Assembly (NCBI GenBank): GCA_964385385.1
Contig: CAYLPA010000001.1
Coordinates: 1 to 56,466, forward strand
Reading direction: 5' to 3'
Length of the DNA: 56,466 nt
DNA from: an uncultured Saprospiraceae bacterium
GTDB taxonomy: Bacteria; Bacteroidota; Bacteroidia; Bacteroidales; CAYLPA01
Below the pieces are notes generated by a model that saw only the letters and a program-made list of their open reading frames with translations, was not told the origin of the DNA and searched no databases. Shown here piece after piece: positions 3,056 through 56,466 of the stretch; position 1 is the stretch's first letter; each line of letters begins with the position of its first letter. A program made the position numbers and the translations under genes.

Positions 3056-6000
3056 TGTATATGAAAAGCCCATTCAAATTTCTCGACAGTTATACCAAAG
3101 AAGATAAAAACATATTTTTTGGAAGAGATAAAGAAACCGAAGAACTTTATCAAAAAGTTTTTGAGAGTAAAGTATTGTTGGTTTATGGAGTTTCCGGTAC
3201 TGGAAAATCATCGCTTATTCATTGTGGGCTTGCTAATAAATTTAATGAGAGTGACTGGTTACCAATTAATATTAGGCGTGGAGCAAACATTAATGTTAGT
3301 TTGGGAAGAGCTATTGAAAAAGAGATTACTTCGACTTCGTTTCGTAATGACAATAAGAAAGGACTTTCACTTAAAAAACTATTACGCAATCTTTATCTTG
3401 ATAATTTTAAACCAATCTACCTTATCTTCGACCAGTTTGAAGAACTATTTATTTTTGGCTCAAAACCCGAAAGGGAAGATTTTATTAAATCAGTAAAATC
3501 AATTGTTGATAGTGATTTAAATTGCAAATTTCTTTTTGTGATTCGTGAAGAATATCTTGCAGGAATAACTGAGTTTGAAAAGCAGTTGCCGCAAATAATG
3601 CTAAACCGTATCCGCATTGAGAAAATGGGCAGGACTAATGCTATTCAAGCGATTGAAGGTCCTTGCAAATTTGCTGATATTTCATTGGAAAATGGTTTTT
3701 CAGAAGCATTAATTGAAAAACTATCACCTGATAGTGCTGAAGTTGAGTTAACCTATTTGCAGGTTTATTTAGATAAGCTTTTTAAAGTATCAGATAGTGG
3801 TTTTACAAAAGATTTAATTGAATCATTTGGAGATGTAAAAGATTTGCTGGGTTCATTTTTGGATGAACAAATTGCTGAATTAGAATCACCTGACGAAGGA
3901 CTTACTATTTTAAAAGCTTTTGTCTCAACCAAAGGAACAAAACGACAAATCACAGAATCAGAAGTTACTGATTATGCACTTACGCTTGGCAAACAAATAG
4001 AATCAGAACAATTAAGAAGTTTAATTCAAAAGTTTATTGCATTAAGGATTTTACGTGATAAAGACGAAAACAACCGTTACGAATTACGCCATGATGCTCT
4101 GGCAGCCAAGATTTATGAAAAAATTACTCTTGTTGAAAAAGAGCTTTTAGAAGTAAGACAGTTTATTGAGCATGCTTATGAAAATTATAAAAGACGAAAA
4201 GTATTATTAAACAAAACTGATTTAAGCTATATCGCACCTTATGAAGATAAAATATACTTTGGAAAAAATTTACAGGAATTTCTGAATAAAAGCAAATATG
4301 AGGATGAAAAGGCAAAACGCCGAAAACGTATATTAATATCTACTGCAGCAATCATTTTGTTACTGATTTTTGCAGGATTTAGTTGGTGGGCATTGAATGA
4401 AAGAAGTAAGGCTCAGGATAAAGAAAAACTTGCAAATGAATTATATATTAAATCTCAAGCAAACAATTTTAATTTCCTTGCAATAGAAGTTTTAGAAACC
4501 AATCCAACAAAAGCATTAGGTATTGCTGAATATGCTTATTCTCTAGATTCTAATAATAAAAACATTTACCAAAACTTATTAAACATTTATTATAACTATC
4601 CAATATATAAAAGGATCATAAAGAGGCTTAATAATGAAATAAGCTCAGTATGTTTCTCCCCAGATGGAAAAACATTAATAACTGGTTCTTGGGATAATAC
4701 TGCCCGTTTATGGGATTTGAATGGAAATCTGTTGCAGATTTTTAAAGGGCATAAATATGAAATTACTTCAGTAAGTTTCTCACCTGATGGGAAAACAATA
4801 CTAACTGGTTCTTTGGATATGACTGCCCGCTTATGGGATTTGGATGGAAAACAATTGCAGGTATTTAAAGGGCATGAAGGCTCTATTCATTCAGTATGTT
4901 TTTCACCTGATGGAAAAAAATTACTAACTGGTTCTTTTGATAAGACTGCCCGTTTATGGAATTTGGATGGTAACCAATTGCAGGTATTTAAAGGACATGA
5001 AAGCATAATCGTATCCGTATGTTTTTCACCTGATGGAAAAACAATACTAACTGGTTCTTCAGATAAGACTGCCCGTTTATGGGATTTGGATGGAAAACAA
5101 TTGCAGGTATTTAAAGGGCATAAAAGCTCTATCAATTCCGTATGCTTTTCACCCAATGGAAAAACAATACTAACTGGTTCTAATGATAAAACTGCCCGTT
5201 TATGGGATTTGGATGGAAAACAATTGCAGGTATTTAAAGGGCATAAAAGCTTTATTCGTTCAGTATGTTTTTCACCTAATGGACAAACATTACTAACTGG
5301 TTCTTTTGATAATACTGCCCGTTTATGGGGTTTGGATGGAAACCAATTGCAGGTATTTAAAGGACATAAAATGAGAATTCATTCCGTTTGTTTTTCCCCT
5401 GATGGAAAAACATTACTAACTGGTTCTTGGAATAATGTCCATTTATGGGATATGGGTGGAAACCTATTGCAGGTATTTAAAGGGCATGAAAGCTCTATTC
5501 GTTCAGTATGTTTTTCACCTGATGGAAAAACATTACTAACAGGTTCTGATGATAAGACTGTCCGTTTATGGGATTTGGATGGAAAACAATTGCAGGTATT
5601 TAAAGGGCATGAAAGCGGTATTCATTCAGTATGTTTTTCACCTGATGGAAAAACATTAATAACTGGTTCTTGGGATAATACTGCCCGTTTATGGGATTTG
5701 GATGGAAACCAATTGCAGAGATTTAATATGCAAGAGATTTCATCAATGTGTTTTTCCCCTGATGGAAAAACATTACTAACTGGTTCTTGGGATAATACTT
5801 TAAATTTATGGGATTGGGATGGGAACCAATTGCAGGTATTTAAAGGACATGAAGGCAATATTATTTTAGTATGTTTTTCACCTGATGGAAAGACAATACT
5901 AACAGGTTCTGTTGATAAGACTGCCCGTTTATGGGATTTGGATGGGAACCAATTGCAGGTATTTAAAGGGCATGAAGATGATATTTACACAGTGTGTTTT

Positions 6001-19458: not shown

Positions 19459-19464
19459 TCTTTT

Positions 19465-19713
19465 GTTAGTGGAAAGATTTGATTGATTGCAACCACGGAA
19501 AAAAATGCTAAAACAATTTGTTTTCCAACCTATCAATCAAATCCCGCAAACATTTTAACGTAAAATAAGTTCTTGAAGCTTTTTATCTTTAGACATCTGC
19601 CTACGCAAAATTTTGCTTCTGCAGACAGGCTCTAAGTACTTTAGGCACTCTAGACACTTAAAATACTTTAGGCACTTATTTTACAATTTATTAATAAACA
19701 AAAAATCAAAAAT
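19465..19713 (+). promoter_or_regulatory. Long structured 5' leader of metK (riboswitch/attenuator candidate, class unassigned)
   Basis: 12-bp stem gatttgattgat (19476-19487) / atcaatcaaatc (19532-19543) encloses mutually exclusive inner helices. Palindrome gcaaaattttgc at 19605-19616. 13-bp direct repeat tactttaggcact at 19637 and 19664. Confidence 0.4.
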
Positions 19714-21015
19714 ATGGGATATTTATTTACATCAGAATCAGTTTCTGAAGGACATCCTGATAAAGTAGCAGATCAAATATCAGATGCATTATTAGACAAA
19801 TTTTTAGCAAACGACCCCGAATCAAAAGTGGCTTGTGAAACACTCGTAACAACCGGACTTACGGTACTTAGCGGGGAAGTAAAGACAGATCATTATATTG
19901 ATGTTCAGGACATAGCTCGTGATGTGATAGCAAGAATTGGATATACGAAAGCAGAATATCAATTTGATGCAAAATCATGTGGAGTTATTTCAGCAATTCA
20001 CGAACAATCAGGAGATATTAATCAAGGAGTTGTTAGAGCAAAAGATGAAGATCAGGGAGCAGGTGACCAAGGGATGATGTTTGGTTATGCTTGTCGCGAA
20101 ATGGACAATTATATGCCAATTCCAATTGAGCTTGCACATATTTTCTTGCAGGAACTTGCAGACATTCGCCGAGAAGGCAAAAAAATGAAATATTTAAGAC
20201 CGGATTCAAAGTCTCAAATTACGGTTGAATACAGTGATAACAATAAACCTTTGAGAATTGATGCAATTGTTATTTCTACTCAACATGATGATTTTGATGA
20301 AGAAGAAAAAATGCTTGCCAAAATCAGAGAAGATGTTCAGAACATTTTAATTCCAAGGGTTAAAAAACAAATTCCGAGAAAGTATAAAAAACTATTTCAG
20401 GGAGATTTTACTCTTCATGTAAATCCAACTGGTAAGTTTGTTATTGGCGGACCTCATGGCGATACAGGATTAACAGGTCGTAAAATAATTGTTGACACTT
20501 ATGGTGGAAAAGGTGCTCACGGTGGTGGTGCTTTTTCAGGAAAAGATTCTTCAAAAGTTGACCGTTCTGCAGCTTATGCAACTCGACATATTGCAAAAAA
20601 TCTTGTTGCTGCAGGAGTAGCTGACGAAGTATTGGTTCAAGTAGCTTACGCAATTGGAGTTGCCCAGCCAGTCGGCTTATACATTAATACTCACAAAACC
20701 GGAAAAGTAAGAAATGCTGAAGGCAAAAAACTTACTGATGGTGAAATTTCAAAAAAAGTAAATAAAATTTTCGATATGCGTCCTTTTGCAATTATCAAAA
20801 GATTTGGTTTGAAAAATCCTATTTTTGAAAGAACTGCTTCTTATGGTCATTTTGGAAGAGATTATTATACTGAAGAAGTTGAAGTTTTCTATGATGGAAA
20901 AGATGTAACTACCAAAAAAATTGATGGCGTTGAACGTAAATTCAAAAACGTTGAATTTTTTGCATGGGAAAAACTTGATTATGTAGAAAAAATTCAAAAG
21001 GCTTTTGGGCTATAG
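19714..21015 (+). CDS. metK: S-adenosylmethionine synthetase
   Basis: [46 protein letters not shown] motifs, 433 aa. Confidence 0.95.
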
Positions 21016-54298: not shown

Positions 54299-55177
54299 TT
54301 ATAACTCATAACCAAAACGTTTCAATTGGTTCTCGTTATTTCTCCAATCTTTATTTACTTTCACTGTAAGCTCAAGGTAAACATGATTATCAACAAACTC
54401 TTCAATGTCTTTTCTGGCATCGATTCCCAATTGTTTTATTGCTTTTCCTTTATGCCCTAATAGAATCATTTTCTGAGATTCTCTTGTAACAAAAATCGTT
54501 GTGTATATTCTGATTATATCTTTGCTTTCCTTATACTCATCGACAACTACTTCAACAGAATAGGGAATCTCCTTTTGATAATTCAAAAGCACTTTCTCTC
54601 GTACAATTTCTGAGATAAAAAATCTTGTTGACTTGTCGGTAAGTTCATCTTTAGGAAAATATGGCGGGTTTTCAGGGAGTGCTTCTAATATTCTATTGAA
54701 AACCATATCTACATTAAACTTCTTTAAAGCAGAAACCGGAAGAATTGCAGCTTTAGGAATTTTTGAATGCCAATATTCAACTTTTTCTTCCAATTCTTTT
54801 TGGTTAGAAAGGTCAATTTTATTTATTACTAGTATTTTAGGAATATTGGAATCGTTAAGAATTTTAATAAATTCATCGTTGATACTATCACCTTTTATTT
54901 CACTTACGAAAAGTATTATATCTGCATCTTTTAAAGAATTAGTTACAAATTTCATCATTGAAGCTTGCAATTTATAATTTGGCTCCATTATTCCGGGAGT
55001 GTCAGAATATACTATTTGAAAATCCTCACCATTGACAATTCCCATGATACGATGTCGTGTTGTTTGAGCTTTGGAAGTAATAATTGATATTTTTTCGCCA
55101 ACAAGTGCATTCATCAAAGTAGATTTCCCTACATTCGGACTTCCAATAATATTCACAAAACCAGCTTTATGAGTCAT
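54299..55177 (-). CDS. era: GTPase Era
   Basis: [13 protein letters not shown]...G.K..I.S...QTTR, DTPG, NK.D, and a C-terminal KH domain, 292 aa. Confidence 0.95.
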   Translation of the reverse strand: MTHKAGFVNIIGSPNVGKSTLMNALVGEKISIITSKAQTTRHRIMGIVNGEDFQIVYSDTPGIMEPNYKLQASMMKFVTNSLKDADIILFVSEIKGDSINDEFIKILNDSNIPKILVINKIDLSNQKELEEKVEYWHSKIPKAAILPVSALKKFNVDMVFNRILEALPENPPYFPKDELTDKSTRFFISEIVREKVLLNYQKEIPYSVEVVVDEYKESKDIIRIYTTIFVTRESQKMILLGHKGKAIKQLGIDARKDIEEFVDNHVYLELTVKVNKDWRNNENQLKRFGYEL

Positions 55178-55199
55178 AATTATTTAATTAATAAATATA

Positions 55200-55231
55200 T
55201 TTGCAAAATAAATAAACAAAATCTATCTTTG
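55200..55231 (+). promoter_or_regulatory. Candidate promoter of the tRNA gene (TTTG-N20-TATCTTTG)
   Basis: TTTG at 55200-55203 and TAnnTTTG at 55224-55231, about 60 nt upstream of the tRNA. Confidence 0.5.
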
Positions 55232-55290
55232 CACCGCAAAAATACATAGAATTAATCGTTCTTTAGAAATTATTAAAATTAAAAATATAT

Positions 55291-55364
<74 letters not shown>

Positions 55365-55368
55365 CAAA

Positions 55369-55387
55369 AAGCCGGTTTTTCCGGCTT
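55369..55387 (+). terminator. Hairpin immediately after the tRNA
   Basis: aagccgg-ttttt-ccggctt gives a 7-bp stem. No downstream T run, so it may be a processing or terminator element. Confidence 0.5.
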
Positions 55388-55421
55388 GGCGATTCATTAA
55401 CCAAAAGAAAGTTTAAGTTGT

Positions 55422-55452
55422 ATCTCGCAAGATAAATTTTGGCGAGATTTTT
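55422..55452 (+). terminator. Second terminator-like hairpin downstream of the tRNA
   Basis: atctcgc / gcgagat 7-bp stem with a 13-nt loop, followed by TTTTT. Confidence 0.5.
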
Positions 55453-55710
55453 CGATTAATATATACAATAAAGGAATTACTTCAAAATTTTCTAAAAATA
55501 TATTTCAGAAGTCAATACAAACTAAGCCATAATAAAAATTACATTATAATTCCATTTTTGTTTAAGAAACAAAATCAACAATTTAACAATTCAACAATAA
55601 ATCACAATCCTTTTCAATCAATTTGAGTTATTAACAATTGTTAATAACCCATGTTAATATTATGTTTATAATTGAACCTCAGATTTCTTGGATAAAGAGC
55701 AGTATTGAAT

Positions 55711-55718
55711 TATATTTG
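55711..55718 (+). promoter_or_regulatory. -7 box TATATTTG upstream of the candidate large ncRNA
   Basis: Exact TAnnTTTG match, with a TTG 20 nt upstream (55688-55690). Confidence 0.5.
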
Positions 55719-55724
55719 CAAGCA

Positions 55725-56360
55725 TCAAGTGAGAGATAAAAGGTAGCCTGGAAAAGCCAGGGTTTAGATAGAGAAGTTCCGAAAGGTGCAGCTTGATTTA
55801 AACAGATCTTTGAAATAATAAATTCGAAAGGATTTATTGCAGAAAAGGTGCTCGAAAGAGCAGGGGTTGAAAAAGTAAAATTCGTAAGAATAATGCTTGG
55901 GAAACCCGGGCCAGAAGCAAATATGTTCGCAAGAACTTATTAACCGAAGGTCAGCTTGAAAAGCACGGGAAAATGAAAGCTTAGCTCGAAAGAGTCAAAG
56001 TGGGAATGGAACCGATTCCGGAAGCAGAAACCCGCAAGGATTGAAGTTGATGGAAATGCTTCGAGCTCGAAATTCTAACATTATGCTTGCAAAAGGATGG
56101 TGATAAAGTTTCGGACTTGTCAAAGTTTAGCTTAAACGAAATATTTCTGCCATCATGTCGGCTTGCGAAAGCCGGGGAATAACAGGACGAAGCTTGCAAG
56201 AGTGGAAGCCAGCGAAGCCCGGAACTGAGAAAAGAGTATTAGCTATAAGTTATTCACAGAGTCAGCCATAATAACTGTAACTTGGCGCTTCTCAAAAGCT
56301 ACGGCTATTGAAAAGTGAATGGGAATGATTCCGAACAGGAATGATTCCCATTTTGTTTTT
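55725..56360 (+). ncRNA. Candidate large (about 630 nt) highly structured ncRNA, family unassigned
   Basis: No credible ORF. My hand counts of 60-nt lines give 43-58% G+C inside versus about 22% in the 5' flank. At least six GNRA-capped hairpins, all in plus-strand sense. Bounded by a promoter box and a strong terminator. Confidence 0.6.
56320..56360 (+). terminator. Strong intrinsic terminator ending the candidate ncRNA
   Basis: tgggaatgattcc-gaaca-ggaatgattccca gives a 13-bp stem with one mismatch, followed by ttttgttttt. Confidence 0.8.
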
Positions 56361-56466
56361 ATAGGAAATCATCCAACTTATTTGTACTTTTAAAAACTAA
56401 ACTGGATAAACAATAGGTAGTGTCCACATTAGTGTGTCTATTGCATGTAAAAAGTTTTCAATAAAT

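Follow-up and report, generated by a model that had tools for sequence, protein, structure and literature searches.

Near the end of a stretch of 56,466 nt from an uncultured Saprospiraceae bacterium (contig CAYLPA010000001.1 of assembly GCA_964385385.1), called the window below, a G+C-rich and hairpin-dense locus follows a tRNA gene, and the question raised by this locus is whether it is an RNA gene and, if so, what kind of RNA it encodes. A preliminary description, made from the letters of the DNA, had proposed for positions 55711–56360 a large ornate non-coding RNA (ncRNA) of unknown family. We have confirmed that a structured, non-coding and G+C-richer locus is present at 55736–56360 on the plus strand, and this observation is real and statistically solid. 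Our favoured reading, which is a tentative one with rather less than an even chance of being right, is that the locus, placed on a flexible island, encodes an ncRNA that is transcribed separately and consists of a modular array of hairpins, working as a multivalent scaffold or decoy.

When G+C content was calculated in 200-nt windows, the values were 22–22.5% at 55400–55699 and 38–44.5% at 55800–56299, in agreement with the G+C jump noted previously. At 55800–56299, the plus strand is also purine-rich, with a GC skew of +0.13 to +0.41 and an AT skew that is likewise positive. The earlier statement that no credible open reading frame (ORF) is present was substantiated: the longest ORFs in the flagged stretch have 72 amino acids on the minus strand and 38 on the plus strand, and protein searches gave no informative match. 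A six-frame pseudo-protein concatenate of the locus had no match among 5.8 billion proteins; the longest stop-free frame, of 85 amino acids on the minus strand, searched with full HMMER against 1.84 billion representatives, gave only low-complexity multi-stretch matches; and an exact look-up of a 31-amino-acid ORF from the locus returned no record. A protein-coding gene or pseudogene was rejected because there is neither an open frame nor translated similarity to known proteins.

All hairpins listed in the preliminary description were recovered within 1 nt, and its view that they make sense only on the plus strand was borne out by counting. Hairpins with a GNRA loop and a stem of at least 4 bp number eight on the plus strand of the 650-nt locus and zero on the minus strand, and the count in 2000 dinucleotide shuffles had a mean of 0.86 and a maximum of 5. 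Ranked by such hairpins, the locus comes first among 1118 windows of 650 nt taken from both strands of the 56-kb window, and 713 kb of other loci contain nothing comparable, the next best count being 5. The predicted folding energy is −190.6 kcal/mol, with z scores of −5.35 for the plus strand and −3.14 for the minus strand (20 shuffles per strand), and 19 of 26 listed local helices have a pair probability above 0.9. Because the GNRA loops are confined to the plus strand, they argue for a single-stranded function of this strand.

The same strand specificity would suit a mobile element's signal in single-stranded DNA that acts in one orientation only, for example a priming site, a single-strand origin or a hairpin field associated with an origin of transfer (oriT). 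This explanation, which we consider very improbable, could also draw on the location of the locus next to a tRNA gene, where strain-specific DNA begins, and on the presence at 56211–56217 of GCGAAGC, which we take to be a very stable DNA mini-hairpin. However, known single-strand origins, with 150–300 nt, are shorter than the locus, genes for a relaxase, Rep or integrase are not seen, a search of phage and plasmid collections (blastn, distant mode) found nothing but a 28-nt chance match, and framing by a promoter and a terminator suits an RNA gene better.

The arrangement of the hairpins is repetitive. Base-identity autocorrelation has peaks at shifts of 104 (z 3.6), 208 (z 4.7) and 311 (z 2.8), the maximum of 500 shuffles being 4.4, and five successive slices of ~105 nt, starting from 55736, 55841, 55945, 56050 and 56155, can be aligned nearly gap-free on the plus strand with a mean column identity of 61%. 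The first unit, U1 (55736–55840), has hairpins at 55747–55761 (5 bp), 55762–55803 and 55806–55849, the last formed around a 10-bp hairpin with a GAAA loop at 55816–55839; the stretch 55732–55797 is up to 67% identical to the sequence 104 nt downstream. U2 (55841–55944) has a 5-bp hairpin with a GAAA loop at 55849–55862, a hairpin at 55864–55907 formed around a 4-bp hairpin with a GUAA loop (55880–55891), and another with a GCAA loop at 55920–55941 (around 55925–55936). U3 (55945–56049), with hairpins at 55984–55995 (GAAA loop, pair probability 0.86) and 56000–56035, resembles U1 at a shift of 208, and its part 55955–56017 has up to 63% identity with the U5 sequence located 208 nt downstream. 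U4 (56050–56154) is the least regular and has a 44-nt three-tier hairpin at 56069–56112, and U5 (56155–56262) has hairpins at 56158–56175 (7 bp, GCGA loop) and 56192–56203. Most of the listed hairpins have a pair probability of at least 0.9. Three or four hairpins of 42–44 nt have the three-tier form, located at 55762–55803, 55806–55849, 55864–55907 and 56069–56112.

Similarity between units is spread over the pairs U1/U2, U1/U3, U2/U3 and U3/U5, reaching 60–67% in 30-nt windows; overall the units are ~50–65% identical, and the 5′ part of each unit (~65 nt) is better conserved than the 3′ part. In a six-unit alignment, the register slips around U4, and the array is irregular, its units having no sharply defined boundaries. 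Tandem Repeats Finder reported no array in the body, the units being too diverged for it; near-identical and regularly spaced short direct repeats were not found in the locus, where repeat families are 11–23 nt long and have 2–3 copies; and consensus structures obtained with MAFFT and RNAalifold for the units or for 44-nt modules were weak or empty, the alignments not being in structural register. A degenerate CRISPR array and a type III toxin-antitoxin RNA array were rejected as candidates on the ground that near-identical repeats are missing.

Two hairpin motifs recur on the plus strand with a frequency far above expectation. The type-1 motif, YTCGNRAGR (hairpin YUC-GNRA-GAR), has five copies starting at 55823, 55851, 55881, 55926 and 55985; the shuffle mean is 0.15, none of 2000 shuffles reaches five, and 0.04 copies per 650 nt are expected from the rest of the window. 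The type-2 motif, CTTGCRARAG (hairpin CUU-GCRA-RAG; repeat family D1), has three copies starting at 56086, 56162 and 56193, where the shuffle mean is 0.01 and again none of the 2000 shuffles attains the observed number. The shorter CGNRAG occurs nine times in the locus, a count also reached in 0 of 2000 shuffles. Stem sequences vary between units and yet stay paired, as in GCUC/GAGC, AUUC/GAAU and GUUC/GAAC, although these hairpins were picked for pairing and serve as an illustration rather than as an independent test. Judging from the sequence, the body looks like an irregular tandem array of diverged ~104-nt units with repeated small hairpins. RNA families called ornate are defined by a conserved, covarying architecture across homologues. 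Of the large ornate ncRNA proposed previously, the non-coding, strand-specific and strongly structured character has stood, while the single ornate fold is doubtful and probably wrong, an array of diverged units taking its place.

The G+C jump, a well-placed −7/−33-like promoter and a terminator frame this unit, and we count these for an RNA gene. The putative Bacteroidota-type promoter (55688–55718, plus strand) is composed of TTG at 55688–55690, a 20-nt spacer and TATATTTG at 55711–55718; the last agrees with the Bacteroidota consensus TAnnTTTG and is the sole plus-strand TAnnTTTG from 55245 to the window end. At the 3′ side, a hairpin at 56287–56316, whose helices have pair probabilities of 0.79–0.98, is followed by an intrinsic-terminator-like hairpin and then by UUUUGUUUUU, together covering 56318–56362 (inverted repeat I1). 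The terminator with a U-run mentioned in the preliminary description is thus present, and the fold gives it 9 + 5 bp with one G.G mismatch and a GAACA loop, spanning 56318–56352 without the U-run. Because of this stem mismatch, the plus-strand terminator is missed by a consensus terminator scan, and it is the fold that we rely on.

This order, namely a promoter, a long structured RNA, a terminator and then at least 190 nt of gene-free AT-rich DNA, is also what a cis-acting leader or attenuator would present, in which a long structured 5′ leader ends at a conditional terminator (56318–56362) ahead of genes beyond the contig end. The sequence CAAAGUGGGAAU (55996–56007) could act as an antiterminator, since it is complementary to the terminator's 3′ arm (inverted repeat I15; 12 nt, 92%) and at the same time resembles the 5′ arm (direct repeat D7). 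We nevertheless regard a leader as unlikely: the candidate antiterminator is 336 nt away from the terminator, there is no match to a riboswitch, T-box or leader family, 600 nt of repeated hairpins are unlike known attenuators, and no downstream ORF begins in the remaining 190–200 nt.

In the reading that we favour, an ncRNA gene of ~0.6 kb on the plus strand would extend from the promoter near 55711 to the terminator at 56318–56362, on strain-specific DNA starting right after the terminator of a tRNA-Met gene. The RNA would be a string of ~17–20 short hairpins with A-rich linkers, instead of one intricately nested fold, and would have originated by repeated tandem duplication of a ~104-nt unit, several 42–44-nt three-tier hairpins recurring in it. 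Eight of the hairpins keep the tip YUC-GNRA-GAR or CUU-GCRA-RAG, so that the RNA would display many like hairpins. Because many copies of the same small hairpin are present, a multivalent way of working appears most likely, in which a scaffold or decoy would bind several copies of one partner; this partner might be a protein with specificity for the C-GNRA-G hairpin, or else tetraloop receptors located in the RNA itself or in a different one.

We next describe the DNA on which the locus is located. The gene era (54299–55177, minus strand) is divergent from a tRNA-Met gene with a CAT anticodon (55291–55363, plus strand; found by ARAGORN, and with 65.5 bits for the Rfam tRNA model), and the same arrangement of this pair is found in many Bacteroidota loci. 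A terminator-like hairpin of the tRNA gene (55369–55387, plus strand) is the last stretch common to sister strains. Close cultured relatives of the source organism are missing: across 185,579 GTDB species, Era identity reaches 70% at best. Among metagenomic relatives, Era identity is 98% in L085–L088 and 89% in L089 and L090. When 55178–56466 was compared by blastn with L085–L090, only query bases 1–210 were aligned, at 89–99% identity. Homology with the sister strains thus spans era to the tRNA-Met terminator hairpin and ends at 55387, giving a breakpoint at ~55388; the divergence follows CCGGCTT, and the T-run is replaced here by GGCGATTC. Because homology ends right after the tRNA-Met terminator, the spacer and the array are strain-specific DNA that was inserted or exchanged at a hot spot by the conserved tRNA-Met/era pair. 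The spacer (55388–55710; ~320 nt, 22% G+C) is AT-rich and found only in the present strain, and at 55627–55648, 63 nt upstream of the putative −7 box, it contains the 22-nt sequence GTTATTAACAATTGTTAATAAC, a perfect palindrome (inverted repeats I3 and I13) that resembles the operator of a DNA-binding protein acting as a dimer.

Past the breakpoint, the sister strains have tRNA-like fragments, a GIY-YIG-like ORF and other genes. In L085, positions 1620–2170 read on the minus strand contain three partial tRNA-like 3′ halves, with a terminator-like hairpin after the first two, and a small GIY-YIG-like ORF; together these give the impression that integration or recombination has taken place repeatedly at tRNA-Met. 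An imperfect 11-nt direct repeat, CTTGGCGATTC (55385–55395) and CTTGGCGCTTC (56281–56291), brackets 896 nt; its first copy is located exactly at the synteny breakpoint and its second just before the 3′ hairpin and the terminator, and the pair could be an insertion footprint or chance. The 18-nt CTTATTAACCGAAGGTCA (55936–55953) has 83% identity to the anticodon-arm/variable region of tRNA-Met (55321–55338), a likeness that is probably due to chance. Two independent assemblies, L001 and L003, agree fully in the sequence of the locus: a 59-kb contig of JGI 3300031657 extends 75 nt past the window, and an independent ENA assembly extends 12 nt more (L001 1–75 and L003 1–87). Other assemblies, L002 and L004, end at tRNA-Met, and the shared break points suggest that the locus is flanked on either side by DNA that is repeated or varies between strains.

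Known RNA families were searched for with cmscan. With all 4227 Rfam 15 models at the gathering score, only a SAM-II riboswitch and the tRNA were found in the whole window, the former being an ordinary long-loop SAM-II riboswitch at 19463–19521 (plus strand, 68 bits) with metK (19714–21015) 190 nt downstream. At E ≤ 10, searches of 55380–56466 (1087 nt) and of 56020–56240 (221 nt) gave only noise of 12–22 bits, including CRISPR-DR53, GibS, c4-a1b1 and NEAT1_2, together with an 11.8-bit RNase P fragment outside the body. Accordingly, GOLLD, ROOL, HEARO, OLE, raiA, RNase P, tmRNA, riboswitches and self-cleaving ribozymes have no Rfam support; tmRNA was rejected also because ARAGORN gives tRNA-Met only, and a search for the CR-I signature of RNase P was empty. 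The locus therefore keeps its earlier placement in an unknown family next to a tRNA, with neither RNase P nor tmRNA signatures, while the kinship with GOLLD and ROOL that had been considered does not hold, there being no covariance-model match. REP-like elements were rejected, there being no other copies in the window, and an rRNA operon nearby was rejected because the loci flanking era have no rRNA signatures.

Homologues of the locus were also searched for. There was no second copy within the window and no blastn or nhmmer match in 80 GTDB Bacteroidota loci around era. The viral contigs of IMG/VR were scanned with five patterns: two exact 23–24-mers and a P4-like pair had no match, a three-hairpin pattern matched only three unrelated places, and the sole match of a twin-hairpin pattern was a phage RNase P-like RNA (L092). 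A metagenome scan was anchored on two identical GCTCGAAAGAG hairpins; it was a shallow search, in which the source contig was not among the matches listed, and at least 119 loci were retrieved (L093–L211), none of them resembling the locus among the matches listed. The scan was swamped because CRISPR repeats contain the 11-mer GCTCGAAAGAG. Many of the metagenome CRISPR arrays, which are unrelated to the locus, have 36–37-nt repeats with the hairpin GCGCUCGAAAGAGCGC followed by AUUGAAGC, as in GTCTCCGCGCTCGAAAGAGCGCGGCCCCATTGAAGC, and on their account GCTCGAAAGAG is badly suited as an anchor for searches.

The viral match L092 may deserve attention of its own. It is located at 3563–3941 (plus strand) of a 172-kb viral contig (IMGVR_UViG_3300013121_000022) and is a divergent class A RNase P RNA with a full-length alignment to RF00010 (58.9 bits, E ~1e-17, below the gathering score of 100), after which four tRNA genes are found at 4495–5062. 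That a twin-hairpin pattern of our locus should match a divergent RNase P RNA beside four tRNA genes brings up the reading that the locus is itself a highly diverged or rearranged RNA derived from class A RNase P, standing beside a tRNA gene as in this phage contig. In a weighted local alignment, the locus follows the RF00010 consensus colinearly from CR-I to CR-V with a score of 150.5; shuffles score 132.4 ± 7.1 (4 of 500 as high; z 2.5), and the L092 control scores 177. A P4-like pairing of GGAAAUGCUUCG (56052) with ACAGGACGAAGCUU (56182) is equalled in 4 of 20000 shuffles; it has 8 bp and one bulge, with only 118 nt between the strands, and competing mappings exist. Because GCUU and AAGC are strongly over-represented throughout the locus, the shuffle count makes this pairing seem far more remarkable than it is, and one equally good P4-like composite occurs by chance elsewhere in the window.

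Other evidence makes a derivation from RNase P hardly probable at all. No cmscan match was obtained over 55711–56300 at E ≤ 10, even in the 221-nt search, whereas the divergent L092 still reaches 58.9 bits. The CR-I core GGAAAGUCC is absent; for the conserved CR-I (GGAAAGUCCGG) and CR-V (ACAGAAnCCGGCUUA), the regular expression GGAAAGTCC was empty in the window, the best look-alikes being GGAAAUGCUUCG and ACAGGACGAAGCUU. Several by-eye mappings are mutually exclusive, and the long-range helices P5, P7 and P10–11 are unsupported. Because the locus is absent from the sister strains, it is not the housekeeping rnpB. Membership in RNase P was rejected on the absence of a covariance-model match, on the lack of conservation of CR-I and CR-V and on the equally good incompatible mappings.

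Several points weigh against the reading as a multivalent hairpin-array ncRNA and have to be set beside the evidence above. The closest metagenomic relatives (Era identity 98%, 90% and 89%) are without the locus, and its absence from strains with 98% Era identity means that it is dispensable and possibly recent or decaying. The searches made found no homologues, so evolutionary evidence for a kept structure is missing; we do not take this as a refutation of the ncRNA proposed previously, the coverage of metagenomes being shallow, and the locus stays an orphan ncRNA candidate of one strain. Both contigs end ~190 nt after the terminator, and the DNA downstream is therefore missing. The promoter motif is not statistically distinctive, TAnnTTTG occurring 105 times in the window against 107 expected; the −7 box proposed at 55711 fits the consensus, but only its placement speaks for it, and we treat the promoter as putative. 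Transcription, the boundaries of the transcript and the whole mechanism of multivalent binding are what we infer, and there is no candidate binding partner for the putative scaffold or decoy. Furthermore, amplification of one hairpin-bearing unit would alone be able to yield many same-sense hairpins and enriched motifs without selection.

The last point leads to the main rival explanation, that the locus is a decaying tandem repeat or mobile-element remnant without RNA function: a ~104-nt unit with small palindromes would have been amplified on recently acquired DNA and would now be diverging, and the hairpins, shared motifs and low folding energy would be inherited from the founder unit and not selected. 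We judge it unlikely, though deserving of serious consideration. The clear internal periodicity, the absence of the locus from the sister strains and the lack of homologues in our searches are in accord with it, as are the downstream flank of tRNA-Met, which is a recombination hot spot as indicated by the tRNA fragments and the GIY-YIG ORF of L085, and the break of the contigs of two assemblies ~190 nt past the terminator. On the other hand, eight stems of 4–10 bp are intact and differ in sequence while the units are only 50–65% identical, and neutral decay should have broken most of them; the tetraloops are all GNRA on one strand (8 versus 0). These intact stems and plus-strand-only tetraloops speak against decay without being decisive. 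As with the tRNA, G+C here clearly exceeds the level of the genome, and the array is framed by a terminator and a plausibly placed promoter.

Another array-type explanation has to be considered, in view of RNA-guided systems reported from the same phylum. For the nuclease-dead Cas12f of Bacteroidota associated with a sigma factor (dCas12f-sigmaE, or "Sigma-TnpB"), the guide RNAs (gRNAs) have 85–105 nt and are in tandem in two species (PMC13472631), and "irregular omega-RNA-like arrays" have been reported in dCas12f-sigmaE loci (PMC13472631, PMC12259091, PMC10691335). These gRNAs have four paired regions and a 3′ guide (PMC12259091), and Sigma-TnpB loci are linked to relaxases and integrases (PMC10691335). 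By analogy, the locus may be an array of small RNAs cut into ~100-nt units, each composed of a scaffold and a variable part, which would serve as guides for an RNA-guided protein whose gene is located past the contig end or at another site of the genome. Besides the Bacteroidota host, the ~104-nt period falls inside the published range, the 3–4 hairpins per unit can be set beside the four paired regions, and within each unit conservation is higher in the 5′ ~65 nt than in the remainder. Published Sigma-TnpB systems are linked to mobile DNA, published gRNAs can be encoded away from effector genes, and an operator-like palindrome is present upstream of our locus.

Even so, we consider guides of this kind improbable. 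With Cas14a1 as query, tblastn found no Cas12f/TnpB-like gene in the window or in the other loci fetched. The upstream neighbours here are tRNA and era, whereas the published gRNAs are immediately downstream of dcas12f in an hth-rpoE-dcas12f locus, and published tandem gRNAs are nearly identical, whereas the units here are 50–65% alike with a shifting register. A by-eye likeness to the tracrRNA/repeat of Un1Cas12f1 is not above shuffles (305–494 of 1000 score as high), and there are no 12–14-nt matches to the rest of the window beyond chance.

A wider proposal joins the favoured reading with that of guides. The locus could be the first sighted member of a new bacterial RNA class, a transcript of ~0.6 kb encoded on a mobile island and built of diverged ~104-nt modules with C-GNRA-G hairpins, acting either as a multivalent platform, by which a dedicated partner would be assembled or sequestered, or as a processed guide-like array for an RNA-guided protein encoded beyond the assembly break; we put this forward as a speculation that is rather unlikely to hold. 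If the locus is transcribed and maintained, it would be a large bacterial RNA with a modular and repetitive, rather than ornate, architecture, and the multivalent or array-type ncRNAs, which are few, would gain a member from the Bacteroidota. It would also be carried on strain-variable DNA by a tRNA gene, which is a typical place of accessory systems for defence and regulation. Since its hairpin tips recur in identical form, they could be used directly to pull down a partner. As a decaying repeat, the locus would instead serve as a warning that a G+C jump, many GNRA hairpins and a very low folding energy can stem from the amplification of a single unit and by themselves are no proof of an RNA gene.

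We finally compare the locus with known systems. Class A RNase P RNA shares with it the tRNA neighbour, the GNRA-loop hairpins and a weak colinear consensus similarity, but has ~370 nt as against ~630 nt, and the locus is dispensable among strains, its P4-like pairing competes with other mappings, and the long-range helices are unsupported. GOLLD and ROOL are similar in being non-coding and GNRA-rich, several hundred nt long, adjacent to tRNA genes, on flexible and probably horizontally acquired DNA and without a known function; unlike them, the locus has no covariance-model match at any threshold and no homologues in our searches by which a conserved ornate architecture could be recognised, and its diverged modules follow one another in a chain where most hairpins are local, in contrast to a deeply nested fold of several domains. 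The tandem gRNAs of dCas12f-sigmaE come from the same phylum and resemble the locus in their ~100-nt units arranged in tandem on one strand, in having several paired regions per unit and in the mobile-DNA association of those systems; they differ in that no effector, rpoE or hth gene is seen here up to the contig end and the units of the locus are far more diverged. In the sponge RNAs CsrB, RsmZ and RsmY, the loops carry GGA, in place of the C-GNRA-G hairpins found here (loops GAAA, GUAA, GCAA and GCGA), and the restriction of the locus to one strain speaks against a role in core regulation. What these sponges have in common with the locus is many copies of a short hairpin motif, internal duplication and an intrinsic terminator, which is a likeness of mechanism and not of homology.

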